Source: a virus
Taxonomy: Duplodnaviria > Heunggongvirae > Uroviricota > Caudoviricetes
Reading direction: 5' to 3' (one strand)
IMG/VR virus record: IMGVR_UViG_2778261389_000005
Coordinates: 1 to 35,777 of that record
DNA: 35,777 bases
Shown here: piece by piece, positions 5,502 through 19,174 of the stretch
Numbering within the stretch: position 1 is the first letter of the stretch
Layout: each line of letters opens with the position of its first letter
Notes under the pieces: generated by a model
The model's input: the letters and a program-made list of their open reading frames with translations, nothing else
Told to the model about the DNA's origin: nothing
The model's database searches: none
Made by a program: the position numbers and the translations under genes

Positions 5502-5641
5502 GTGAGATCCTCATTTTTGGGTGTTAGAATCCCCGGACCATTGATAGCGCCCATTGGGTTAACTTTGGTTTTAATGTTGTTTCCGGTGTAACTTTGGTCG
5601 GTGAGGCCGGACATGGCGGGCCCACTTCGGTGGGCTTTCGC

Positions 5642-6206: not shown

Positions 6207-6413
6207 TTAATGGCTGAGGCCATTCCCCAGACCGTTCAGATAAACTTCAACCAGCAAATCCTTGGTGTAAGTCATTTCTACGCCGCGATGCAGATACAAA
6301 CGTCCGCGAGCGTTAGCTGATGCCGTCCAGGTTGAGTCTTTGTGTTTGACGAGCATCCCCGGCTGAACTGCGCCGCGGTTTACCGTCTGTGTACCGTAGT
6401 GCTGATGAACCAT
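6207..6413 (-). CDS. Hypothetical small protein
   Basis: 68-aa ORF; GGAG 4 nt upstream of ATG; same operon orientation. Confidence 0.4.
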   Translation of the reverse strand: MVHQHYGTQTVNRGAVQPGMLVKHKDSTWTASANARGRLYLHRGVEMTYTKDLLVEVYLNGLGNGLSH

Positions 6414-6803
6414 GATGTTCTCCAGTTTTCTGAGTGAACTTCGCTAGTGGCGCCGTGATGCTGATCTTCACAGTTGAGCGTTTTAACTCTGCAGTTCACC
6501 ACCGCGAAGCTCACTCTGTGCTTTGCCCTTGTCGCCAGGCTGGCGGAACGTTTCAAACCTACTGCGCGTTAATCTCACCACCTCATTCCGGTCTTCGTAT
6601 GCCCCGGACGGCTTCTTCGTGGGCGTCCTGCCTAGGTGGTTGTGTTGATGGAGTAAGTAAAACACCGCTTTACCATTAAGTCAAGTAATGCAGATTAAAA
6701 AGGTAAAGCATAGCTGTATGTTGGGCGAAATTTATCCAGATTAGAGATGATTGCATCAACTAAAAGTGTGTATGATGAAAAAAAACATCATTGAGGGTGG
6801 GAT

Positions 6804-6998
6804 ATGGAAAAGTTCTACGTGGGTTACAACGATGTATGTCAGGCGGTAGGTAGAGCGACGCTGAATCTGATATCACATGGAGACGCGCCCACTACTGAGG
6901 CGATCATTTCAATGCTGGAGTCGCTGGGGGATATTGAGCAGAACGATTTTTGGCGACAGGTGTTCAGGTTTGCTGCTGAGGAAGTGCGAAAAGGGTAG
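6804..6998 (+). CDS. Hypothetical small protein, opposite strand to surrounding early genes
   Basis: 64-aa ORF; GAGGGTGGG RBS before ATG; followed by hairpin at 7011-7028. Confidence 0.45.
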   Translation: MEKFYVGYNDVCQAVGRATLNLISHGDAPTTEAIISMLESLGDIEQNDFWRQVFRFAAEEVRKG

Positions 6999-7002
6999 GC
7001 AA

Positions 7003-7028
7003 AAGAAACCCCGGCGCGGTGGCCGGGT
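7003..7028. terminator. Bidirectional rho-independent terminator
   Basis: CCCGGC-GCGGTG-GCCGGG hairpin flanked by A-run upstream and T-rich tract downstream; lies between convergent ORFs. Confidence 0.5.
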
Positions 7029-7034
7029 TGGAGA

Positions 7035-7460
7035 TTATTTTCTAGATGATGTTGGGGACCAAGGTAACGTTATAGTATCTAACACTGTGTTTTTGAACAT
7101 ATTTTCAAAAACTGTTTTTGTACATACATATACATAATTTTCAAAAAACCAAGCATTTTCATTATAAAAATCCTCAGTTACTTCTTCATCGAGGTCACAC
7201 TCAAATGTTAGTGTCAAGGTAGCCTCTGCCTTGAACAATACATCCTCACCATCATCAAAATCTTTTTTATCGCGAGGGAAACCAGTTATCGATGGCTTAA
7301 CTTCAATAAAGAGCCAATTTCCATCTTCATCTTTTTGAGGAACAACGTGATGCTCAGAAAATTTTAAGCTATATTTTCCGCCTTCAGAATTATCACTGTC
7401 GTCGATAAAAAGGGAAGAACCCTCGAGATCAAATCCCTTAAAGCGAATTTTATCAAGCAT
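7035..7460 (-). CDS. Hypothetical acidic protein, third gene of hicAB operon
   Basis: 141 aa from ATG at 7458-7460, overlapping hicB stop by 1 nt (TGATG); ORF-track version starts at TTG 7496; followed by terminator; AT-rich. Confidence 0.45.
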   Translation of the reverse strand: MLDKIRFKGFDLEGSSLFIDDSDNSEGGKYSLKFSEHHVVPQKDEDGNWLFIEVKPSITGFPRDKKDFDDGEDVLFKAEATLTLTFECDLDEEVTEDFYNENAWFFENYVYVCTKTVFENMFKNTVLDTITLPWSPTSSRK

Positions 7461-7933
7461 CAATGTGGCACTCCGTTGTCTACTGAAACTTCCCAATAGG
7501 TCTCTTCTGTACGTCTACGGGATGAGAAGAAAGTAACTTCTCTAACATCCCTCGGTTTTTCAAAGTGGTAGTGAACCTCTTTTTTCCCATTAACTGACTC
7601 ACTGACAGCCTGTTTTACATAATCGTTTAAAGTCATATTCTTAGCTTTAGCAGCTAAATATGCTTTTTTATGCAGGGATTCACCTATCCGGATGTTAAAC
7701 GAACCACTCATTGTCTTATCTGGAGATTTTCCTATCTCTTCACAAGTGGAGAGGTAATCGTCCACGGCCTCCTCAAAGGCTGCACGGAGTTCTGCAACCG
7801 TTGCACCCTCATAAGTGACGAGATCATTTATACATTCGAGTTTTCCATGCATCACCCCATCTTCAAATGAAATGCTGGAGCTACCATAGTAACCTTTGTA
7901 TTTCATCAAGTTATTCATGATCATCAATCTCAT
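7460..7933 (-). CDS. hicB: HicB-family antitoxin
   Basis: Motif MKYKGYYGS...DG..HGKLECINDLVTYEG...EL..AFEEAVDDYL..CEE.G..P.K..SG.FN.R typical of HicB; likely true start at internal Met (7918 or 7906); about 40-aa C-terminal extension. Confidence 0.8.
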   Translation of the reverse strand: MRLMIMNNLMKYKGYYGSSSISFEDGVMHGKLECINDLVTYEGATVAELRAAFEEAVDDYLSTCEEIGKSPDKTMSGSFNIRIGESLHKKAYLAAKAKNMTLNDYVKQAVSESVNGKKEVHYHFEKPRDVREVTFFSSRRRTEETYWEVSVDNGVPH

Positions 7934-8165
7934 CTAACAGCTGTTTAACTTCTTCCAAGACGTACCTTTTGAGGGTGTTTTCAGGATGAGGCTCATGAAA
8001 AATGACCAATCTATCAACACGTTGGTTGTAAAATTTACGGCCAGAACCTCGTTTAGCATTCAAAAGCTTGAAGCCATACTGGTTCATGAGAGTAACGAAC
8101 TCATCCCAAGTAAAATTTTTGGGTAAGCCGTCTAACTTTGACTTTAGCTTTTCCTTTCTTCCCAC
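7911..8165 (-). CDS. hicA: HicA-family toxin (YcfA-like fold), non-canonical
   Basis: 84 aa, GTG start; aligns to HicA pattern (GF.L...RGS..KF....V..HEPHP) but with GSGR in place of the usual GSHH; overlaps hicB. Confidence 0.7.
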   Translation of the reverse strand: MGRKEKLKSKLDGLPKNFTWDEFVTLMNQYGFKLLNAKRGSGRKFYNQRVDRLVIFHEPHPENTLKRYVLEEVKQLLDEIDDHE

Positions 8166-8325: not shown

Positions 8326-8424
8326 TTAGCCGCTGGGTGTTGCGTATCCATCGATGATAAACCATGCCATAAACCCCATAGCTACGATGAACACCAAGAT
8401 CGGAAACACTATACCAATTCTCAT
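8326..8424 (-). CDS. Small hydrophobic peptide (32 aa), possible membrane peptide
   Basis: Hand-translated MRIGIVFPILVFIVAMGFMAWFIIDGYATPSG; AGGGA RBS-like sequence upstream; single predicted transmembrane helix. Confidence 0.3.
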   Translation of the reverse strand: MRIGIVFPILVFIVAMGFMAWFIIDGYATPSG

Positions 8425-8469: not shown

Positions 8470-8862
8470 TTACTCGGCATCGCCCTTAATCCGCCGCCCC
8501 ATATATTTGGCGTACAGATCGTCGAGTTCCTTCAGGCGCAGTGATACCGCCTTAAGAACTCCACCCTGATCCTCTTCGGGGAGTTGACGGAAAAGGCGTA
8601 AAAGCTCTTGCTCATTACTTTTTAATCCATCATTGGGCCCTATATCCTGCCCCAAAACCCAGGCTAAATTCACACCAAGCGCATCAGCTAGCTTAAGTGC
8701 GGAGTTTTTCCCAATAGTTCCCCTTACAAACCAGTTGTTAACCGACTGGGATGTTACGCCACAAATTCTGGCCAGATCTGCTTTTGAGAGATGTTTACTA
8801 TTCGTGATCTCATTGAGTCGTCTGACCTGTGGGTTATCTGATTCGTGTGTATTTTTTCTCAT
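8470..8862 (-). CDS. DicA-like HTH (XRE) repressor, paralog 2
   Basis: N-terminal HTH (LSKADLARICGVTSQSVNNW) and C-terminal LRLFRQLPEEDQ...LRLKELDDLYAKYM; about half identical to the upstream gene; alternative GTG start at 8877. Confidence 0.7.
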   Translation of the reverse strand: MRKNTHESDNPQVRRLNEITNSKHLSKADLARICGVTSQSVNNWFVRGTIGKNSALKLADALGVNLAWVLGQDIGPNDGLKSNEQELLRLFRQLPEEDQGGVLKAVSLRLKELDDLYAKYMGRRIKGDAE

Positions 8863-8881
8863 GTACAAGAGTATCACTTAG

Positions 8882-9265
8882 CTAATCAGCATCGCCCCTG
8901 ATTCTGCGATTCATGTACTTGGCATATAGTTCATCGAGTTCCTTCAGACGCAGGGAGAAGATCCTTATCATATTCTGCTGTTCTTCTTCCGGTAACTGTC
9001 TGTAGAGCTCCAGAATACGTTGTTCATCAGGCTTAAGACCATCCTTCTCTCCAACATCCTCACCAAGTAGCCAGGGGACGGACACCCCTGCAGCGTCAGC
9101 AACCGCTAATGCAGAACTTTTGCTGATTCTTCCTGTTTTGAACCAACTGGAAACAGCTTGCTTACTGACGCCAGCAACCCTGGCCATCTCTGTTTTAGAG
9201 AAACCTTTCCTGTTCAGTTCTGTAAGCCTGGAAATCAGCTCATTTGTCATTGTTTTTTCGCTCAT
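8882..9265 (-). CDS. DicA-like HTH (XRE) repressor, paralog 1, probable CI analogue
   Basis: 127 aa; HTH plus LPEEEQ C-terminal module resembling DicA; divergent from cro-like gene across operator region. Confidence 0.75.
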   Translation of the reverse strand: MSEKTMTNELISRLTELNRKGFSKTEMARVAGVSKQAVSSWFKTGRISKSSALAVADAAGVSVPWLLGEDVGEKDGLKPDEQRILELYRQLPEEEQQNMIRIFSLRLKELDELYAKYMNRRIRGDAD

Positions 9266-9363
9266 TTCATTAGTGTAAATGATCGCTTTACTGTCAGGTA
9301 GGCATTCATGGTTTGACTTTTATAGTAAAATGATGCTTTACTTTTGCCATCTAAGGAGGTCCT
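9266..9363. promoter_or_regulatory. Immunity-region divergent promoter/operator with two related palindromic sites
   Basis: GTAAA-TGATCGC-TTTAC at 9275-9291 and GTAAA-ATGATGC-TTTAC at 9325-9341; TTGACT -35-like hexamer at 9313-9318. Confidence 0.5.
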
Positions 9364-9588
9364 ATGACTGGTATTGAGAAAGCTATTCAAAAGTTCGGCA
9401 CAGGTGCGGCACTCGGAAGAGCGCTTGGATTTTCAAAAATGACAATTTCCAACTGGAAAAAAACTGGCATTCCGCCCGATCACATTCTCTCTGTTTTTGA
9501 GCTTACGGGGGTCACACCGCATGAGTTGCGGCCTGACTTATATCCAAATCCAACCGATGCCTTACCAGTGCAAGAAACGAGGACGTAA
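9364..9588 (+). CDS. Cro/YdaS-like HTH regulator
   Basis: 74 aa; HTH and GVTPHELRPDLYP segment resembling Rac prophage YdaS; AGGAGG RBS. Confidence 0.7.
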   Translation: MTGIEKAIQKFGTGAALGRALGFSKMTISNWKKTGIPPDHILSVFELTGVTPHELRPDLYPNPTDALPVQETRT

Positions 9589-9590
9589 AC

Positions 9591-10130
9591 GTGCAATCAC
9601 TATCACTTCATCAAAATAGCGGATATCAACCGGCTGCGATGATAAATCGCAATCAACCTGTCTCGGTAGATAAACATGACCAGATCCGCGATGCCGTTCG
9701 TGCGTGGGCGGGTGTAGATGGTCAGGATGTCGTTTCTGCTCTGATCATCGAAGAGTACCAGGCTCAAGGGGGAGACGAGATCACTTTCCCTGATGACCTC
9801 AGCCGACAGCGTCAGAAGCTTTTCCGCTTCCTGGATAACCATTTCAACAGCGAACGGTACCGTGAGAACGTTCGCCAGCTGACTCCGGCAATCCTGGCGG
9901 TCCTGCCGATTGAATACCGCAACCGTCTGCTACCAGAAGACAACGTTATGGCCCGCCTGGCTCGGCTGGAGAAAGAAACCAGCGAAGCGAAGATTGCCGT
10001 CGCAATGGATGCGCCACGCCATCAAAAGCTGAAAGAGTTGAGCGAGGGGATCGTGGAGATGTATCGCGTTGACCCTGGGTTAACCGGTCCACTGATGGAG
10101 ATGGTGCAGATGATGCTGGGGGCTATATGA
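9591..10130 (+). CDS. YdaT-like protein (cII-position regulator/toxin-like)
   Basis: 179 aa; LTPAILAVLPIEYRNRLL resembles Rac YdaT; immediately follows the cro-like gene. Confidence 0.6.
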   Translation: MQSLSLHQNSGYQPAAMINRNQPVSVDKHDQIRDAVRAWAGVDGQDVVSALIIEEYQAQGGDEITFPDDLSRQRQKLFRFLDNHFNSERYRENVRQLTPAILAVLPIEYRNRLLPEDNVMARLARLEKETSEAKIAVAMDAPRHQKLKELSEGIVEMYRVDPGLTGPLMEMVQMMLGAI

Positions 10131-10214
10131 CCGGTTCAAAAATGGCGAAAGCCGCGGTGCGCGAACACCAACGGCTTTCAGGTGCAAAAACAGTGCGTAA
10201 TTGCGGAGAACAGT

Positions 10215-11123
10215 ATGTCAAACACCGCTGAAATAATCAATTTCCCAAATAAAACCGAACAACCGGGAGGTCGTATGGCCGACCTGTCGAACGGGTATAC
10301 CAAGGTCGCTAACGAGATCCAACAGCTTAAGCCTCGCCTGAGACTGTCAGGCCGGGAATGGCAATGTTTTGAGGCGGTGATCTGGCTTACCTACGGCTGG
10401 AACAAGAAACAGGACCGCGTGACAAATACGGTTATTGCCGAGCTTACGGGCCTGAGCGATACGCATGTATCGGACGCGCTTAAGTCTCTCGCAGAACGCA
10501 AAATCATCTTTTCACAGAAGCAGGGCATGATGAAAATCGTCGGTGTAAACACTGACCTTTCAGCATGGATTTTAGACAAACCGGAAACGGGAAGAAAATT
10601 CCCGAAAACGGGAAAATCCTTCCCGAAATCAGGAATAACCTTCCCGAAAACGGTAGACACCCAATACAAAAACAAGAACAGTATTAAAAGATCTTCGTCC
10701 GAGAATTCTGACGAATCCTCTGACGCACGTCTGAAGAAATTTTTATCAACTCATCCTGAAGCTGCGGTCTACACACCATCCGGTGCGAAGTGGGGCTCTG
10801 CTGAAGACCTCGAGACAGCTAAGTGGATTTCCTCCAGGGTGAAGCTGATTAACCCAACCTGCAAAGCCCCGGACATGACCTCCTGGTCTAACACTGTTCG
10901 CCTGATGCGCCAGATAGACAACCGGTCGCACCAGGACATCTGCGCGCTGTATGACTGGGCTAGCAAACACCACTTCTGGCAGACCAACATCCTGAGTCCC
11001 GAAAGCCTGCGTAAGCAGTGGGACAAGCTGACAATGCAGCGTAACGCCGGAGGTGAGCAGCGCGCTGTCAAGCCAGATCTGGACTTCAACAACACTGACT
11101 GGGCCTATGGGGTGATCCGATGA
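10215..11123 (+). CDS. O: Replication initiator protein, lambda O-like
   Basis: N-terminus MSNTAEIINFP...ADLSNGY...LTYGWNK parallels lambda O; iteron-encoded PKTGKSFPKSG segment; ORF-track start 10182 is upstream. Confidence 0.8.
   Translation: MSNTAEIINFPNKTEQPGGRMADLSNGYTKVANEIQQLKPRLRLSGREWQCFEAVIWLTYGWNKKQDRVTNTVIAELTGLSDTHVSDALKSLAERKIIFSQKQGMMKIVGVNTDLSAWILDKPETGRKFPKTGKSFPKSGITFPKTVDTQYKNKNSIKRSSSENSDESSDARLKKFLSTHPEAAVYTPSGAKWGSAEDLETAKWISSRVKLINPTCKAPDMTSWSNTVRLMRQIDNRSHQDICALYDWASKHHFWQTNILSPESLRKQWDKLTMQRNAGGEQRAVKPDLDFNNTDWAYGVIR
10578..10700. repeat. Putative replication origin: four about 20-bp iterons plus AT-rich tract inside O gene
   Basis: Repeats CCGGAAACGGGAAG, TCCCGAAAACGGGAAA, TCCCGAAATCAGGAAT, TCCCGAAAACGGTAGA at 21-bp period, each with internal dyad symmetry, then A-rich sequence. 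Confidence 0.6.
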
Positions 11124-11809
11124 AATCTCTTGCAGAGCAGATGCGTAACCACGACCGCGAGCAGATGAGCCGCATGGCCCATAACCTGCCAGAGCAGTAC
11201 CAGGAGTGCGCGCCGGTCGAGCAGGTGGCGCAGGTATTCAACAAGCTGTTCAACGAGCTGCGCGCCGCGTTCCCGGCCAGCATGGCGAACTTCCGCACCC
11301 AGGAAGACCTGAACGAATTCCGCCGTCAGTGGCTGCTGGCGTTTCAGGAGAACGGGATCCACACCATGGCTCAGGTCGATGCCGGCATGCGCATTGCCCG
11401 CCGCCAGGAGCGCCCATTCCTGCCGTCGCCGGGCCAGTTCGTCGCCTGGTGCAAGCAGAGCGGCGGCGCGCTGGGCGTCAACGTTGACCAGGTGATCGCC
11501 GAATACTGGGACTGGCGTAACCGCTCGTTCGAATTCATCTCCAGCGAGCAATTTCCATGGTCGCAGCCGGTCATGTACCACATTTGCGTAGAATTGCGCC
11601 ACCGCAGCACCGAGCGCCAGTTAACGCATGGTGAACTGGCACGCGAGGCAGGCGATCTGCTGGACATGTGGGAAAGGCGCGTCACCGAGGGTAAGCCAGT
11701 GCCGCCGGTACGCCGGGCTATTGCCGCACCAGCTGCCGAGCAAGGGCCGACGCCGATCCAGCTGCTGCTGGCCAAGTACAACCGCAACAAGTCGAACGGG
11801 ATGGTGTGA
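11120..11809 (+). CDS. P: Replication protein P (helicase loader), lambda P-like
   Basis: Near colinear similarity to lambda P (MKSLAEQMRNHDREQMSRMAHNLPEQY..., RPFLPSPGQFVAWC); ATGA overlap with O. Confidence 0.85.
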   Translation: MKSLAEQMRNHDREQMSRMAHNLPEQYQECAPVEQVAQVFNKLFNELRAAFPASMANFRTQEDLNEFRRQWLLAFQENGIHTMAQVDAGMRIARRQERPFLPSPGQFVAWCKQSGGALGVNVDQVIAEYWDWRNRSFEFISSEQFPWSQPVMYHICVELRHRSTERQLTHGELAREAGDLLDMWERRVTEGKPVPPVRRAIAAPAAEQGPTPIQLLLAKYNRNKSNGMV

Positions 11810-14178: not shown

Positions 14179-14829
14179 ATGAGCGACAACCAGTTAGCAC
14201 CTTGTTGGGAATTTCAGCCTTACCTTGCTGAAAGCAATGTTCGTCAGTTGTTAGCGGAAATTGCTAATGTACTCGAGCAATTGTACTACCACAAACACAC
14301 ACTGGACAGTAACTGGTCCGAAGGTGTAAGGGCTTATGATTGGGTCAGAAATCATTTGATTCAAAGTGAAGGGACACTGCCGGGTCTGGAAATGGTTTCG
14401 AAGGGACTGGATTATGTGGTTGCGTTAAATAAAGTGCCGCTGCAGTTCTCCAAAGATTGCATTAATAACCCGAAGAAGAAGCATCGCCTTCTTCGAAATA
14501 GGGTGGAGCATGAGCAACTTTCATTGTTCGGTGAAACTGAAGCCGAGCAAGATATTACATGGCGGATCATCGCCGAACCATTTTTATCCGATGAAGAAGA
14601 TGGCGAGCTGGAATCAACATTGCCTCGCTGGGAAGTGGCTTTAGTTGGGTTTAACGCATATGGTGCCCAGATCAGTATGGTTTCACACCAATCTACTGCT
14701 TCAGCGCCGCTTATGTCTCTTGATACCAACACTCTTCCGGATGAAGCTGAGATTGGCAAAGCCTCTCTTCGCCGCCGTAAAAAAGATCAAGATTTGGATG
14801 TGAGCAGTAATGGAACATCAAGTGAATGA
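14179..14829 (+). CDS. Uncharacterised protein, partner of HTH-peptidase; candidate toxin/effector
   Basis: 216 aa, no domain recognised by eye; 3' end overlaps the next gene by 20 nt; acidic and basic C-terminal tail. Confidence 0.55.
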   Translation: MSDNQLAPCWEFQPYLAESNVRQLLAEIANVLEQLYYHKHTLDSNWSEGVRAYDWVRNHLIQSEGTLPGLEMVSKGLDYVVALNKVPLQFSKDCINNPKKKHRLLRNRVEHEQLSLFGETEAEQDITWRIIAEPFLSDEEDGELESTLPRWEVALVGFNAYGAQISMVSHQSTASAPLMSLDTNTLPDEAEIGKASLRRRKKDQDLDVSSNGTSSE

Positions 14830-15913
14830 CTTTGCTGAGTATCGTGGGGATAAGCTCAAATTAGCCAGAATGGCTGTTGGGCTCTCCTGCGAAGAGTTAG
14901 CGGAGAAAATTGGTAAAACAAAACAATTCGTTAGCAAATTGGAAAAAGGGTTTAAACCATCAGAACAGTTGTTAGAATTAATCTCATCTGCGCTGATGAT
15001 TAAATCTGATTTCCTATTTACTGAACGAAAATATGCTTTAGAAAGCGATGTTTGCCATTTTCGGAGTAAAAAATCGAGAACCCAAACATTAACCAATAGT
15101 GTTCTGGCAAGGGCGGAGATTCTTAACATTATAATCTCTGCCGTTGAGGGAGAAATCGAGTTTCCTGATGTTTTCATACCTGAGCACCCCGGTGCTGAAT
15201 TGCTGACTCCAAATGATATTGAACGTGTAGCGGAAGACTGCAGAAGAGCATGGAACTTAGGGCTGGGACCTATATCCTCAATGGTCAAACTGGCTGAGAG
15301 TTTGGGGGTTATTGTTGCTCATGTGACAGGAGTGGATGACCGCGTAGATGCTTTTACTGTTCATAACAACAGGCCAGTAATCATCCGAAATAACGTCAAA
15401 AAGAGTATATGCAGATTCCGATCAGATTTAGGTCACGAATTGGGGCACTTGGTTATGCACGAAGGTATAACCACAGGAGATAAAGTGACTGAATCGCAAG
15501 CGGATCGTTTTTCAAGCGCGTTGCTAGTTCCTCGATTGTCCTTTATTAAAGAGTTTCCCCGTATACGAGGAAGACAGTTCGATTGGAACGCCCTAGTTGA
15601 GTTTAAGCTTCGGTGGAAGATTAGTCTTAAAATGTGCATTTACCGAGCAACAACTCTAGGCCTGCTGACGCAGGAGCAGGCAAGAACAGGTTATATGCAT
15701 TTGAACTCTAAAGGATATACGAAAGTTGAACCAGGAGATGAATTTATTCGCCCGGAAGAACCGAGTATGTTAGCTGAGGCGATTGAAATGCTGGATGATG
15801 CAACATGGATGAGCATTCTCATGAAAACTGGTTTAAGCCAGGAGTTGGTTAGGGAGTTATTCTCGGTAAACCGCCCACTGTCAAATCCAAGAAATCTACT
15901 TCAACTGGTTTGA
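14810..15913 (+). CDS. HTH-XRE regulator fused to ImmA/IrrE-family zinc metallopeptidase
   Basis: N-terminal HTH (LKLARMAVGLSCEELAEKIGKTKQFVSKLEKG) and HEXXH motif (HELGHLVMHE) in a COG2856-like domain; 367 aa. Confidence 0.8.
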   Translation: MEHQVNDFAEYRGDKLKLARMAVGLSCEELAEKIGKTKQFVSKLEKGFKPSEQLLELISSALMIKSDFLFTERKYALESDVCHFRSKKSRTQTLTNSVLARAEILNIIISAVEGEIEFPDVFIPEHPGAELLTPNDIERVAEDCRRAWNLGLGPISSMVKLAESLGVIVAHVTGVDDRVDAFTVHNNRPVIIRNNVKKSICRFRSDLGHELGHLVMHEGITTGDKVTESQADRFSSALLVPRLSFIKEFPRIRGRQFDWNALVEFKLRWKISLKMCIYRATTLGLLTQEQARTGYMHLNSKGYTKVEPGDEFIRPEEPSMLAEAIEMLDDATWMSILMKTGLSQELVRELFSVNRPLSNPRNLLQLV

Positions 15914-15928: not shown

Positions 15929-15952
15929 AAACCCGCTATATGCGGGTTTTTT
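15929..15952 (+). terminator. Rho-independent terminator
   Basis: CCCGC-TATAT-GCGGG hairpin followed by TTTTTT. Confidence 0.6.
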
Positions 15953-16076
15953 CTTTCTGGTAGCGCGCTGTGGTAACGCTGTGCCTCCAGCGCTCGCTGA
16001 GGCGCTGGTGCGTGCTAATTTGCCGGAGCTTTGTCAGCAGAAACAAATAGCGGCGTAATAAAACATTGCTAATTCA

Positions 16077-16103
16077 ACCCGCTACGGCGGGTTTTCTTTT
16101 TTT
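16077..16103 (+). terminator. Rho-independent terminator, second copy
   Basis: ACCCGC-TACG-GCGGGT hairpin followed by TTTTCTTTTTTT; similar to terminator at 15929. Confidence 0.6.
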
Positions 16104-16165: not shown

Positions 16166-16183
16166 TACTGTATAAAAACACAG
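16166..16183. promoter_or_regulatory. LexA (SOS) box upstream of dinI
   Basis: CTGTATAAAAACACAG matches CTGT-N8-ACAG consensus, about 20 nt before the dinI start. Confidence 0.6.
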
Positions 16184-16203: not shown

Positions 16204-16437
16204 ATGAAAGTTGAATTAACCATTGATCGCATGAAAGAACTTCCTAAAGGCGCAGTACCAGCACTGGAGAAAGAACTGCTTAAGCGCCTGAATGATCACT
16301 ATGACAATTGCAGGCTCACAATCCGCCGTGCCGGGGCCGATGGGTTAAGTGTTTTTGGTGGTGACAAGGACGATAAAAAGAAAATTGAATCAATCCTCCA
16401 GGATACCTGGGAAAGCGCTGACGACTGGTTTTATTAG
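16204..16437 (+). CDS. dinI: DinI-family DNA damage-inducible protein
   Basis: MKVELTIDR...AVPALEKEL...LSVFGGDKDDKKKIESILQDTWESADDWF closely parallels E. coli DinI; alternative ATG at 16192. Confidence 0.8.
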   Translation: MKVELTIDRMKELPKGAVPALEKELLKRLNDHYDNCRLTIRRAGADGLSVFGGDKDDKKKIESILQDTWESADDWFY

Positions 16438-16554: not shown

Positions 16555-16803
16555 GTGAGTGATTCAGCTTTGCAAACGTCAGAAGACAACTGGTATGACA
16601 TTGTAAGAAGGTCTGACGGCTGCGTGGTGTTTAGCTTTCCTTCATCGGGCAGGCATCTAATTTATCGCGTCAATGGCATGGTTTCTATGCGGCCTTTGCT
16701 GGATGATGAAGAGGTCTTTACTCCTAATGGTTTTATGCAGTTTATTCACCGTCTCGGCTACCGGGTAACCCCACCTTCTGATAATATGAAATCAACGGTC
16801 TGA
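16555..16803 (+). CDS. Hypothetical protein
   Basis: 82 aa, GTG start with GGGAGAA RBS. Confidence 0.45.
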   Translation: MSDSALQTSEDNWYDIVRRSDGCVVFSFPSSGRHLIYRVNGMVSMRPLLDDEEVFTPNGFMQFIHRLGYRVTPPSDNMKSTV

Positions 16804-16837: not shown

Positions 16838-17437
16838 ATGGCGCACGAACTACAACTCATCAAGCATTCCTCAGGAATCCTGATCCCCGCTACGCCGGAG
16901 ACCAGTGATTTACTGCAATCAAAAATCAAACTCGGCTCCGTACTGGTGGCTGAGTTCCGGCAGGTACGCAACCCGGCCTTTCACCGTCGTTTCTTCGCGT
17001 TACTCAATCTCGGTTTCGAATACTGGGAACCCACCGGCGGGGCAATCTCCTCCAACGAACGCAAGCTGGTAACCGGCTATGCCAAGTTCCTTGCCTCATT
17101 CGCGGGAAGTGAAGCAGCACTCCTGGATGCTGCTGAGCAATATCTGGACCGCATCGCCGATAAGCGCGCCGGTAGTATCAGCATCTGCAAATCCTATGAC
17201 GCATATCGTGCATGGGTGATCATCGAGTCTGGCCACTACGACGCCATACAGCTTCCCGACGGCACCCTTCGCAAACACCCCCGCAGCATTGCCTTTGCCA
17301 ACATGGACGAAACCGAGTTCCAGCAGCTGTACAAAGCCGCGCTCGATGTTCTGTGGCGCTGGGTATTGTCCCGGGCATTCAAGGACCAGCGTGAAGCGGA
17401 AAACGCCGCATCGCAGCTCATGAGCTTTGCGGGGTGA
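16838..17437 (+). CDS. DUF1367-like nin-region protein
   Basis: 199 aa; N-terminus MAHELQLIKHSSGILIPATPE resembles YbcN/DUF1367 proteins of lambdoid prophages. Confidence 0.5.
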   Translation: MAHELQLIKHSSGILIPATPETSDLLQSKIKLGSVLVAEFRQVRNPAFHRRFFALLNLGFEYWEPTGGAISSNERKLVTGYAKFLASFAGSEAALLDAAEQYLDRIADKRAGSISICKSYDAYRAWVIIESGHYDAIQLPDGTLRKHPRSIAFANMDETEFQQLYKAALDVLWRWVLSRAFKDQREAENAASQLMSFAG

Positions 17438-19089: not shown

Positions 19090-19143
19090 TCATGTAAATC
19101 TGATATCGTCGCCATAGCTTCGTAGGTCGACAAAGAATTAAGA

Positions 19144-19174
19144 GCCTCGCCATCGTGCGGGGCTTTTTTATTTG
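19144..19174 (+). terminator. Rho-independent terminator (tR'-like)
   Basis: GCCTCGC-CATCGT-GCGGGGC hairpin followed by TTTTTTATTTG. Confidence 0.55.

Follow-up and report, generated by a model that had tools for sequence, protein, structure and literature searches.

A probable lysis–lysogeny immunity switch of GfhR (Gifsy-3) type with YdaS- and YdaT-family proteins in the Cro and CII positions of a lambdoid prophage

Closest described systems

Immunity regions with small repressors are described for the Gifsy prophages of Salmonella, in which the repressors are not cleaved and a LexA-controlled operon has the order dinI, antirepressor, irsA, its antirepressor gene starting with GTG (PMC3121763). 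Gifsy-3 of ATCC14028 and Gifsy-1 of SL1344 use the pair GfhR and GfhA, the gfhR promoter being located between two in-frame AUGs of the long form of the repressor (PMC3121763). In prophage CP-933P of E. coli O157:H7, PaaR2, YdaS and YdaT act as CI, Cro and CII, respectively (PMC8630535), and YdaS and YdaT are published as functional equivalents of Cro and CII (PMC5917428, PMC8630535, PMC9986795, PMC11879457), with the YdaT box activating a reverse promoter (PMC9986795, PMC11879457).

The window analysed here, namely the whole stretch of 35,777 nucleotides of IMG/VR record IMGVR_UViG_2778261389_000005, contains an immunity region of this already known kind, ordinary for a lambda-like prophage. 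We are confident in reading it as a lysis–lysogeny switch of the GfhR (Gifsy-3) immunity type, belonging to a lambdoid prophage whose left arm is Rac/Gifsy-like, and with its CII slot occupied by a YdaT-type protein. The assignment relies on which gene families are present, on the sites and how well they are conserved, on promoter architecture and gene order, and on the near-identity to phage mEp237 and to Salmonella GfhR-type loci; from the Gifsy, CP-933P and Rac experiments we infer all the binding and regulatory events that would take place in it. Relatives were gathered from the protein database and from IMG/VR, the latter contributing 80 loci whose repressors share at least 80% identity with that of the window (rep1), while a rep1 search of genome contigs gave 2 loci.

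Phage mEp237 (JQ182730 / NC_019704) shares 96.5% nucleotide identity with the window from a second repressor gene (rep2) through rep1, OR, cro and the YdaT-type gene up to the start of O. It also has the three exact operators, the YdaT-box candidate and an antirepressor ORF 97.6% identical to that of the window, and differs in carrying other cargo between rep2 and PL, in a 49-bp operator spacing and in having a long repressor ORF annotated. Its record labels the genes as repressor, "prophage anti-repressor" (cro), CII and "hypothetical protein" (rep2).

Salmonella GfhR-type loci have 155-aa repressors that are 87–90% identical to rep1. One of them (L010) has the OR sites GTAAATGATTGCTTTAC and GTAAAATGACGCTTTAC, an exact OL site and a cro product 97% identical to that of the window, and the Gifsy layout of terminators, LexA box, dinI, GTG-start ORF of 82 aa and DUF1367 gene at the irsA position is also found in the window. 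As to differences, the CII of these loci is classical (PF05269) and not, as in the window, of YdaT type; their repressor is followed by parA, and that of the window by rep2, YoaK and HicAB; and they encode a long GfhR* form (the 155 aa mentioned above) that the window cannot encode.

CP-933P (PMC8630535, PMC9986795) shares with the window a small leftward HTH repressor gene, predicted to be leaderless in the latter, an intergenic region of 97–98 bp, a YdaS-family Cro, a YdaT-family CII with a similar recognition helix, OR-type operators also at PL, and cargo presumably co-transcribed behind the repressor. Nonetheless, its operators are four 18-bp palindromes with half-site GTTTAGTAA, as against two strong sites in the window, its cargo is the paaA2-parE2 toxin-antitoxin pair, and it is defective. 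Rac of E. coli K-12 resembles the window in its left arm (kil, a YdaE-like gene, recE and recT), in its YdaS and YdaT, and in a YdaT box at the start of ydaT; it differs in that RacR is unrelated to rep1 beyond the HTH, in that its replication genes are YdaU/YdaV instead of O/P, and in being cryptic. Lambda has in common with the window divergent PRM and PR promoters with shared operators, a distant OL at PL, a leaderless repressor mRNA (probable in the window) and a CII slot after cro, while the window differs in having no palindrome at the OR2 position, no S24 domain in its repressor and a predicted induction by antirepressor.

Repressor, operators and induction

The repressor gene and the sites assigned to it, operators and promoters being predicted, are:

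8882–9265, minus strand: rep1, predicted primary immunity repressor, 127 aa, with an HTH and a conserved C-terminal domain
9272–9277, minus strand: −10 of the leftward repressor promoter, TACACT
9275–9291, unstranded: operator site 1, OR3-like, filling the spacer of the maintenance promoter and overlapping its −10
9313–9342, plus strand: PR, with TTGACT (9313–9318), an 18-nt spacer and TTTACT (9337–9342)
9325–9341, unstranded: operator site 2, OR1-like, in the PR spacer, its right arm being part of the −10
6656–6684, minus strand: PL, with TTGACT (6684–6679), a 17-nt spacer and TTTACT (6661–6656)
6657–6673, unstranded: OL1, third exact operator, within the leftward early promoter (spacer and −10)
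6703–6719, unstranded: OL2, degenerate, with 2 mismatches, 46 bp from OL1

Rep1 matches only HTH_3 and Phage_CI_repr in Pfam. Since no peptidase S24 or self-cleavage domain is matched and a length of 127 aa leaves no room for one, rep1 is not of the lambda CI type and, judged by its sequence, is a small non-cleavable repressor of the Gifsy GfhR type. An S. Typhimurium prophage with parA downstream of its repressor gene, located beside rseC/rseB (the Gifsy-1 site), encodes a repressor sharing 88% identity with rep1. The parA gene downstream of the repressor matches the strain list of Lemire 2011 (PMC3121763). Altogether, the parA context, the rseC/rseB neighbourhood and the 155-aa long form point to this Salmonella homologue being GfhR itself. 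When rep1 was searched against the PDB, spurious poly-ubiquitin matches (to a short low-complexity stretch) and one weak immunity-repressor match were returned, and were discarded.

The 98-bp gap between the starts of the leftward HTH gene (9265) and the rightward gene (9364) contains two exact GTAAA-N7-TTTAC palindromes, GTAAATGATCGCTTTAC at site 1 and GTAAAATGATGCTTTAC at site 2, which the preliminary description had pointed out and proposed as operators. Their occurrence is far beyond chance, allowing one mismatch giving 6 matches in the window versus 0.73 expected from shuffles (0 of 100 shuffles reached 6), while the exact matches are just three, the two OR sites and OL1. Two exact OR sites at fixed positions, starting 75 and 26 bp before the start codon of the repressor gene, are found in 79 of the 80 IMG/VR loci, upstream DNA being missing from the record of the remaining one; an exact OL site is located at the leftward early promoter in 76 of the 80, 0.9–2.9 kb beyond the repressor gene, and the OL2 site is kept across the family and exact in some members. 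Position and conservation thus support the operator reading. In the window the OR sites are centred about −18 and −68 from the repressor start, close to the positions of lambda OR3 and OR1 relative to PRM. Relatives with another recognition helix also have two palindromes in the same positions, with other half-sites (TAAAC-N5-GTTTA; TAAG-N7-CTTA). A conserved TAGGCA block (9299–9304) lies between the two OR sites.

Regarding promoters, TTGAC and TTTACT of PR are invariant across 54 distinct related intergenic sequences, with the flanking bases varying, and PL displays the same architecture, the −10 of each being partly formed by an operator arm. Predicted PL would drive kil (6207–6413), the YdaE-like gene, recE and recT. 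The −10 of the repressor promoter, which reads TACAAT in most relatives, sits 6 nt before the ATG at 9265, so the rep1 mRNA is probably leaderless, by analogy with paaR2 and lambda cI (PMC8630535); no −35 is recognisable in this PRM-like promoter. Its location is consistent with that of the gfhR promoter between the two AUGs (PMC3121763). PR, PL and PRM all remained uncalled by a promoter scan tool because its rules demand A at position 2 of the −10; they were read by eye and are backed by conservation. Searching the immunity region against Rfam returned no family, and the fold of the conserved leader RNA downstream of PL showed no stability above shuffles (z = −0.14).

In lysogeny, rep1 would bind the 17-bp palindromes; on site 2 and OL1, inside the PR and PL cores, it would keep both early operons off, and site 1, in the spacer and −10 of its own promoter, would allow negative autoregulation at high repressor in addition to shut-off by Cro. 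In lytic growth, the YdaS-family Cro is expected to occupy the same operators. The slot between the repressor and PL, in which lambda carries rexAB, would serve for cargo, here rep2, YoaK, HicAB and a 153-aa ORF.

Considering that rep1 is devoid of a protease domain, induction would not proceed through its self-cleavage, and antirepression is the most likely route. The following features are relevant to it:

16168–16183, plus strand: LexA box CTGTATAAAAACACAG, overlapping a TATACT −10 and preceded by two terminator hairpins
16204–16437, plus strand: dinI (phrog_189 DinI, E 1e-26; "DinI family protein" by PGAP in the near-identical prophage of strain PCP06171)
16555–16803, plus strand: predicted antirepressor of GfoA/GfhA type, 82 aa, GTG start, between dinI and the DUF1367 gene
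16838–17437, plus strand: DUF1367 gene at the irsA position, third of the LexA-controlled unit (PF07105, 305 bits)

The 82-aa ORF is predicted to encode the antirepressor from its position and GTG start, both as in Gifsy (PMC3121763), from its 93% identity to the ORF in the same position of the S. Typhimurium GfhR-type prophage, and from its presence in nearly the same phage records as repressors of rep1 and rep2 types; the order dinI, 82-aa ORF, DUF1367 is kept in related loci L009 and L010. Upon DNA damage, LexA would leave the box before dinI, the antirepressor would be made, and the repressor would be stripped off its DNA. This operon, the left operator and the second repressor gene had been omitted from the preliminary description. 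An HTH/ImmA-like metalloprotease gene (14810–15913) was considered as inducer of the switch and rejected, as its product is RmrA, a member of a Rosmer-type defence pair, and the PCP06171 prophage lacks the gene. Likewise, two YdaT-box-like sites beside the antirepressor gene (16778–16795 and 16905–16922), read as CII-type antisense control, were dropped as unsupported, the one at 16905 being absent, at up to one mismatch, from mEp237 and from the Salmonella locus.

One might ask whether the module is still a switch, or a fossil of a defective Rac-like prophage that merely silences the remaining early genes (kil, recET), in line with many E. coli lambdoid prophages being cryptic. The OR sites are 49 bp apart in the IMG/VR relatives, and only 1 of the 79 has the 50-bp spacing of the window, which makes the PR spacer 18 nt long and closes the long GfhR* reading frame. 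Nonetheless, we consider a fossil unlikely, since (i) the regulatory genes are all intact, (ii) rep1 shows dN/dS values of 0.02–0.12 versus its relatives, i.e., strong purifying selection, (iii) the identical 127-aa rep1 sequence is recorded on 27 contigs, and (iv) the window also encodes an integrase, RecET, O, P and Q, to which the PCP06171 prophage adds lysis and terminase genes. Moreover, the mechanism of the switch would be unchanged even in a defective prophage.

The second repressor gene

Behind rep1 lies a paralogue:

8470–8862, minus strand: rep2, HTH repressor, 130 aa from ATG, 19 bp downstream of rep1, the ORF reaching a GTG at 8877

Rep2, presumably co-transcribed with rep1, is 55% identical to it, and a highly conserved C-terminal domain, probably the target of the antirepressor, is common to both. 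The recognition helix of rep2 matches that of phages having a rep2-type sole repressor and TAAAC-N5-GTTTA operators: in 79 of 80 other loci a rep2-type protein is the sole repressor, always with such operators, none of which is present in the window. Three tandem rep2 copies from different phages differ by 27–38% in protein sequence and keep the recognition helix (dN ~0.2, dS saturated).

Adjacency to rep1, probable co-transcription and the C-terminal domain in common would fit the two repressors acting jointly, either as a heterodimer or with both needed for full repression, which would make rep2 a part of the switch instead of cargo; a tandem repressor pair is also found in Salmonella phage SEN34. 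Such joint action is, however, improbable, because a second repressor copy occurs in only 3 of the 80 rep1-type loci, yet the same operators are kept in all of these loci, because rep2-type proteins are so regularly the sole repressor, with an operator that the window lacks, and because strain AR_0118 has this same rep2 behind a repressor whose DNA-binding domain is different.

Our tentative reading, which we put forward as a real possibility short of a probability, is instead that rep2 is an orphan, a repressor from a different immunity group that travels as cargo and is expressed together with rep1. If so, rep2 may provide the lysogen with immunity to heteroimmune phages that have TAAAC-N5-GTTTA operators; it may also be a decoy that soaks up antirepressor, thereby setting the induction threshold or tying the lifting of both immunities to SOS. 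Phages of the rep2 immunity type were not detected, at megablast sensitivity, in 5,426 complete E. coli genomes, and rep2 itself was found in only 3 of them, a rarity that counts against a role of rep2 in E. coli. The closest precedent for rep2 would be mycobacteriophage Mcgavigan, which has a Bxb1-like extra repressor, of foreign type, beside its own (PMC12700041); both the phage group and the protein family are different.

The Cro and CII positions

Rightward transcription from PR would enter two genes, the second with a candidate site at its start:

9364–9588, plus strand: Cro analogue of the YdaS family, 74 aa; PF15943 (YdaS_toxin) with 45.8 bits, cut-off 30
9591–10130, plus strand: CII analogue of the YdaT family, 179 aa from GTG; PF06254 (YdaT_toxin) with 89.5 bits, cut-off 21
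9639–9656, unstranded: candidate YdaT box ATGATA-N6-AATCAA, differing from the Rac box at one position, overlapping an in-frame ATG of the YdaT-like gene

The rightward operon, divergent from the repressor gene, opens with a gene encoding a protein that, in addition to its Pfam match, scores 35.6 for the NCBIfam carph-isopro domain (just below the cut-off of 38), resembles the Cro structure 3bd1 from a Xylella prophage (E 4e-6), and is 28% identical over 61 aa to YdaS of Rac in E. coli K-12 (BLASTP, E 1e-5). The second gene has an alternative start at 9639 that would give 163 aa. Its product belongs to phrog_163, "CII-like transcriptional activator" (E 4e-58, the match beginning at residue 17), is 34% identical over 116 aa to Rac YdaT (BLASTP, E 2e-15), and matches 8bt1 (E 7e-6) and 3c4r (E 1e-4) in the PDB; the 8bt1 chain is titled "YdaT_toxin domain-containing protein" and was read as CP-933P YdaT from PMC9986795. 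Aligned recognition helices are QKLFRFLD in the window, QKIFRWLD in 8bt1 and NIYHRWLK in Rac, so the conserved arginine, Arg60 in CP-933P and R57 in Rac (PMC9986795, PMC11879457), is present in the window protein. The preliminary description was therefore right in placing YdaS- and YdaT-like genes at the cro and cii positions. As compared with lambda CII, the protein in this slot has an unrelated fold (a POU-like HTH tetramer, PMC9986795) and would read an inverted, not a direct, repeat.

For establishment of lysogeny, the YdaT-family protein, as a CII equivalent, would probably bind the ATGATA-N6-AATCAA box, located at the beginning of the gene encoding it, and then activate a leftward promoter, with transcription running into rep1. 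The box was found by a search with the consensus (A/T)TGATT-N6-AATCAA, which, as positive control, also picked up the Rac box at the ATG of ydaT, and we infer from this likeness that it belongs to the YdaT-like protein. At that spot it is a lone site with one mismatch, and comparable ones are also found in other parts of the window; although 5 relatives all keep TGATA and ATCA, the stretch is protein-coding and the spacing is not constant.

Of the 80 loci, which have the same cro, 57 carry a YdaT-type gene in the CII slot and 20 carry a classical CII (PF05269) there, and Cro is 95–99% identical in loci with one or the other. Because the same Cro pairs with either, YdaS and YdaT are not an obligate toxin pair but fillers of the Cro and CII slots, and the loci are direct evidence that the two kinds of CII, YdaT-type and classical, can be exchanged for each other behind one cro.

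The idea of a RacR/YdaS/YdaT-type switch, as first proposed, hence stands for the YdaS and YdaT families, and fails for the repressor, which aligns with RacR over only 12 of 27 residues, in the HTH, and is of the GfhR type instead. It also fails for the supposed toxic character: a toxic switch in place of a classical cI/cro/cII is a false opposition, given the published equivalence of YdaS and YdaT to Cro and CII and the phrog_163 assignment. That the module is an atypical toxin-antitoxin or addiction system of toxins and repressor, and not a lysis–lysogeny decision, may be suggested by the "toxin" labels of both Pfam families, by the killing or filamentation of cells when Rac was deprived of RacR or when YdaS/YdaT were expressed (PMC5700377, PMC5700373, PMC11879457), and by the reported addictiveness of the CP-933P immunity region (PMC8630535), but it is highly improbable in view of the repressor not being RacR-like, the 20 loci in which cro is paired with a classical CII, the canonical place of the module beside O and P, the 96.5% identity to the deposited phage mEp237, and an earlier study that, as cited in PMC5917428 and PMC9986795, saw no evidence of a YdaS/YdaT toxin-antitoxin pair. 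Toxicity on over-expression would not discriminate between the two readings, since over-production makes lambda CII toxic as well (PMC5917428).

The main value of the immunity-switch reading is thus a correction: what databases call "toxin YdaS" and "toxin YdaT" are in this locus clearly a lambdoid phage's Cro and CII regulators, and the proper annotation is that of an immunity region with LexA-controlled antirepressor induction, not of a toxin system. The comparative data additionally provide a clean operator and promoter map of a widespread immunity group, with two OR sites 49–50 bp apart and an OL of one strong and one weak site. Finally, rep2 is the only lead with some discovery value, as it may represent natural heterotypic immunity or antirepressor buffering in enterobacterial phages.

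Repressor, relatives and the predicted LexA-controlled operon

The immunity region is arranged around a divergent gap, with the primary repressor gene (rep1) on its left and a lambda-like rightward operon on its right.

Features of the immunity region
8882-9265, -, rep1, helix-turn-helix (HTH) gene, 127 aa, left of the divergent gap
9266-9363, divergent intergenic gap, 98 bp, between rep1 and the rightward operon
9364-9588, +, 74-aa gene, YdaS family, cro position, first in the rightward operon
9591-10130, +, 179-aa gene, YdaT family, cII position, second in the rightward operon
10182-11123, +, lambda-type replication gene O, rightward operon
11120-11809, +, lambda-type replication gene P, rightward operon

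Over positions 8470-10300 the window shares 96.5% identity with Enterobacteria phage mEp237, an E. coli phage deposited as a complete genome, where the corresponding genes are labelled prophage repressor, CII and, for cro, 'anti-repressor'. The whole 2-kb stretch is also found in 2 complete E. coli genomes at 97-99% identity, and the prophage of one of them, PCP06171, combines a Rac/Gifsy-like left arm (int, recT, recE, a YdaE-like gene, kil) with a lambda-like right arm (O, P, Q, lysis genes, terminase).

Rep1 matches only HTH_3 and Phage_CI_repr in Pfam and has no protease domain, and its closest relatives are hundreds of 155-aa Salmonella enterica proteins, 87-90% identical to it. One S. 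Typhimurium locus, in a prophage adjoining rseC/rseB, contains both operators of the window plus a third exact site past the repressor, parA after the repressor gene, a cro 97% identical to that of the window and, farther right, dinI, then an 82-aa ORF, then a DUF1367 gene, features matching what Lemire et al. 2011 describe for the Gifsy prophages (PMC3121763). In that work, GfoR and GfhR, the Gifsy repressors, are small proteins that stay uncleaved during induction, the gfhR promoter lies between two in-frame AUGs of the gene, and parA adjoins gfhR and gfoR in the strain constructs; the 155-aa and 127-aa forms encountered here fit such a double start. Gifsy induction requires a LexA-controlled operon comprising dinI, then a small gene for the antirepressor that begins at a non-canonical codon, then irsA; in front of the operon lie a LexA box and, before the box, terminator-like hairpins (PMC3121763). 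The window displays exactly the described order.

Predicted LexA-controlled antirepressor operon
15929-15949 and 16076-16093, terminator hairpins, before the LexA box
16168-16183, LexA box CTGTATAAAAACACAG, overlapping a TATACT -10
16204-16437, +, dinI
16555-16803, +, 82-aa ORF, GTG start, antirepressor position, 93% identical to the Salmonella ORF
16838-17437, +, DUF1367 gene

In the phage collection, the 82-aa ORF and repressors of the types of rep1 and of the second repressor, rep2, occur in nearly the same set of records.

Operators and promoters

The two related sites announced for the divergent gap are indeed present, as GTAAATGATCGCTTTAC (site 1, 9275-9291) and GTAAAATGATGCTTTAC (site 2, 9325-9341). 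A pattern search of the 35.8 kb found 3 exact GTAAA-N7-TTTAC sites, the third (6657-6673) unlisted in the preliminary description, and 6 matches with at most one mismatch, against 0.73 expected from shuffles. Among 80 IMG/VR loci with a repressor 80-98% identical to rep1, two exact sites begin 75 and 26 bp upstream of the repressor start codon, 49 bp apart, in 79, the 80th being without the DNA upstream of the repressor; a further exact site lies 0.9-2.9 kb past the repressor gene in 76 of the 80, at a distance varying with the intervening cargo. In a comparison of 54 distinct intergenic sequences, no variation was seen in the half-sites, in a TTGAC block or in TTTACT, and operator centres and flanks vary.

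Predicted promoters and weaker site
TTGACT 9313-9318, 18-nt spacer, TTTACT 9337-9342, +, predicted PR, read from sequence
TTGACT 6684-6679, 17-nt spacer, TTTACT 6661-6656, -, predicted PL, read from sequence
6703-6719, weaker site, 2 mismatches, 46 bp upstream of the 6657-6673 site
9277-9272, -, predicted repressor -10 TACACT, best candidate, TACAAT in most relatives

Site 2 fills the spacer of the predicted PR, its right arm being part of the -10, and the 6657-6673 site lies in the predicted PL in the same register; the weaker site is conserved in position across relatives and exact in some. Site 1 covers the spacer and -10 of the predicted repressor promoter. Sites 1 and 2, centred at -18 and -68, are close to the positions of lambda OR3 and OR1 relative to PRM, and the OR2 position of the window has no palindrome but instead a conserved TAGGCA block. 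Since the predicted repressor -10 stands only 6 nt before the rep1 ATG, without a Shine-Dalgarno sequence, a leaderless rep1 mRNA would be implied, an arrangement demonstrated for paaR2 and familiar from lambda cI (PMC8630535).

Some further features accompany these promoters. The TAGGCA block (9299-9304), which separates the two OR sites and is conserved across the 54 distinct related sequences, occupies -34 to -39 relative to the start of the repressor and is too distant from the -10 for a normal -35. The window has one extra base in 9319-9324, between the PR -35 and site 2 (operator spacing of 50 bp, where 78 of the 79 viral loci have 49 bp), so that the PR spacer is 18 nt and an upstream in-frame ORF, which in mEp237 and Salmonella encodes the long GfhR* form, is closed. 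Just downstream of PL, a leader (about 6600-6636, -; AGGCAGGACGCCCACGAAG.AGCCGTCCGGGGCATAC) is strongly conserved in the family amid variable genes, with ordinary RNA stability (z = -0.14) and no Rfam match.

Relatives with a different recognition helix retain two palindromes at unchanged positions, with other half-sites.

Half-sites in relatives
TAAAC-N5-GTTTA, Klebsiella phage ST974-OXA48phi18.2 and 79 IMG/VR loci
(A/T)TAAG-N7-CTTA(T/A), Salmonella phage SEN34
GTAAA-N7-TTTA(C/T), phage PHB10

Half-sites co-vary with the repressor protein, the pattern expected of operators in a diversifying immunity family. Separately, the E. coli AR_0118 locus (L172, 2913-3296) encodes a hybrid repressor with an N-terminal HTH domain of PHB10 type and a C-terminal half identical to that of rep1, showing a recombination joint inside the gene at the point where the specificity domain meets the conserved C-terminal domain.

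The genes at the cro and cII positions

The proposed resemblance of the rightward genes to YdaS and YdaT is well founded, both scoring above Pfam cut-offs. The 74-aa protein matches YdaS (PF15943, 45.8 bits) and is similar to the solved prophage Cro structure 3bd1, and the 179-aa protein matches YdaT (PF06254, 89.5 bits), PDB chains 8bt1 and 3c4r, and PHROG 163, 'CII-like transcriptional activator' (E 4e-58). Identities to their K-12 Rac counterparts are 34% over 116 aa for YdaT (E 2e-15) and 28% over 61 aa for YdaS, while similarity of rep1 to K-12 RacR is confined to 27 HTH residues. Thus, a Rac type can be assigned to the rightward pair but not to the repressor, and the label 'Rac-like' suits only the left arm and the families of the cro and cII genes.

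The further reading as a RacR/YdaS/YdaT toxic switch is unsupported. The slot after cro holds a YdaT-type gene in 57 of the 80 rep1-type loci (39-99% identical to that of the window) and a classical CII (PF05269) in 20, and a Cro 95-99% identical to that of the window is found beside either, so YdaS and YdaT form no obligate pair. YdaT occupies the CII position, in agreement with Jobling's critique (PMC5917428), with studies of CP-933P, where PaaR2, YdaS and YdaT act like CI, Cro and CII (PMC8630535, PMC9986795), and with those of Rac.

Rac YdaT binds ATGATT-N6-AATCAA at its own start codon, and the reverse promoter thereby activated feeds racR (PMC11879457). A box scan, which recovered that Rac box as positive control, found ATGATA-N6-AATCAA in the window (9639-9656), overlapping the in-frame ATG from which the PHROG match starts. 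It is a candidate YdaT box only, because it is a single site with one mismatch, inside coding sequence, and its spacing differs in relatives. In the window protein the recognition helix reads QKLFRFLD, much like QKIFRWLD in CP-933P YdaT, conserved arginine included. Two inverted repeats resembling the YdaT box, CTGATA-N6-AATCAA (16778-16795) and GTGATT-N6-AATCAA (16905-16922), flank the predicted antirepressor gene at its 3' end, the latter repeat probably due to chance, since it is absent from mEp237 and the Salmonella locus at up to one mismatch.

The second repressor and the cargo slot

Between rep1 and PL, the window carries a second repressor gene and several other genes, whereas Salmonella relatives have parA in this slot and mEp237 has other genes between rep2 and PL.

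Genes between rep1 and PL
8470-8862, -, rep2, 19 bases after rep1, 55% identical to rep1
about 8326-8424, -, YoaK-like small membrane ORF, cargo between rep2 and PL
7911-8165, -, HicA, cargo between rep2 and PL
7460-7933, -, HicB, cargo between rep2 and PL
7035-7496, -, 153-aa phrog_19522 ORF, cargo between rep2 and PL

The C-terminal halves of rep2 and rep1 are nearly identical. A second copy of the rep2 kind accompanies only 3 of the 80 rep1-type loci; these three tandem copies diverge by 27-38% at the protein level, with the recognition helix kept, dN about 0.2 and dS saturated. Of 5,426 complete E. coli genomes, only 3 carry rep2. Among 80 other loci, 79 have a rep2-type protein as their only repressor and so represent another immunity group, the protein lying beside its own cro and usually a YdaT-type gene, and operators there are always TAAAC-N5-GTTTA, which is absent from the window even allowing one mismatch. 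In E. coli AR_0118, an identical rep2 follows the hybrid PHB10/rep1 repressor. On these grounds, rep2 is best seen as cargo in the slot between repressor and PL. It may provide heterotypic immunity, for which a mycobacteriophage offers a precedent (PMC12700041), and may also buffer the antirepressor via the C-terminal domain shared with rep1. Either Gifsy antirepressor, GfoA or GfhA, inactivates both GfoR and GfhR despite the different operators these read (Lemire et al.; PMC3121763), which fits a conserved antirepressor-binding domain.

Elsewhere, a 64-aa ORF between PL and the cargo genes (6804-6998, +), followed by a G+C-rich hairpin (7010-7027), has only a weak match to a PHROG family of unknown function; Salmonella loci have a similarly placed 68-aa gene on the strand opposite the repressor. 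Matches to the Salmonella island sRNAs isrB (5543-5640, +, 38.2 bits, between recE and the YdaE-like ORF) and isrJ (19093-19166, +, 68.7 bits, just past the gene for antiterminator Q) exceed the Rfam gathering scores. A two-gene cassette in the nin region (14179-15913, +), missing from the near-identical PCP06171 prophage, matches a Rosmer-type defence pair.

Rosmer-type cassette
14179-14829, +, RmrT, PADLOC E 2e-26
14810-15913, +, RmrA, HTH and Peptidase_M78, PADLOC E 2e-106, terminator hairpin after

All binding and regulatory steps for the window are inferred from homologues. The finding is real but ordinary: the region belongs to a known immunity type that has been studied by experiment, and a deposited phage genome has a nearly identical one.
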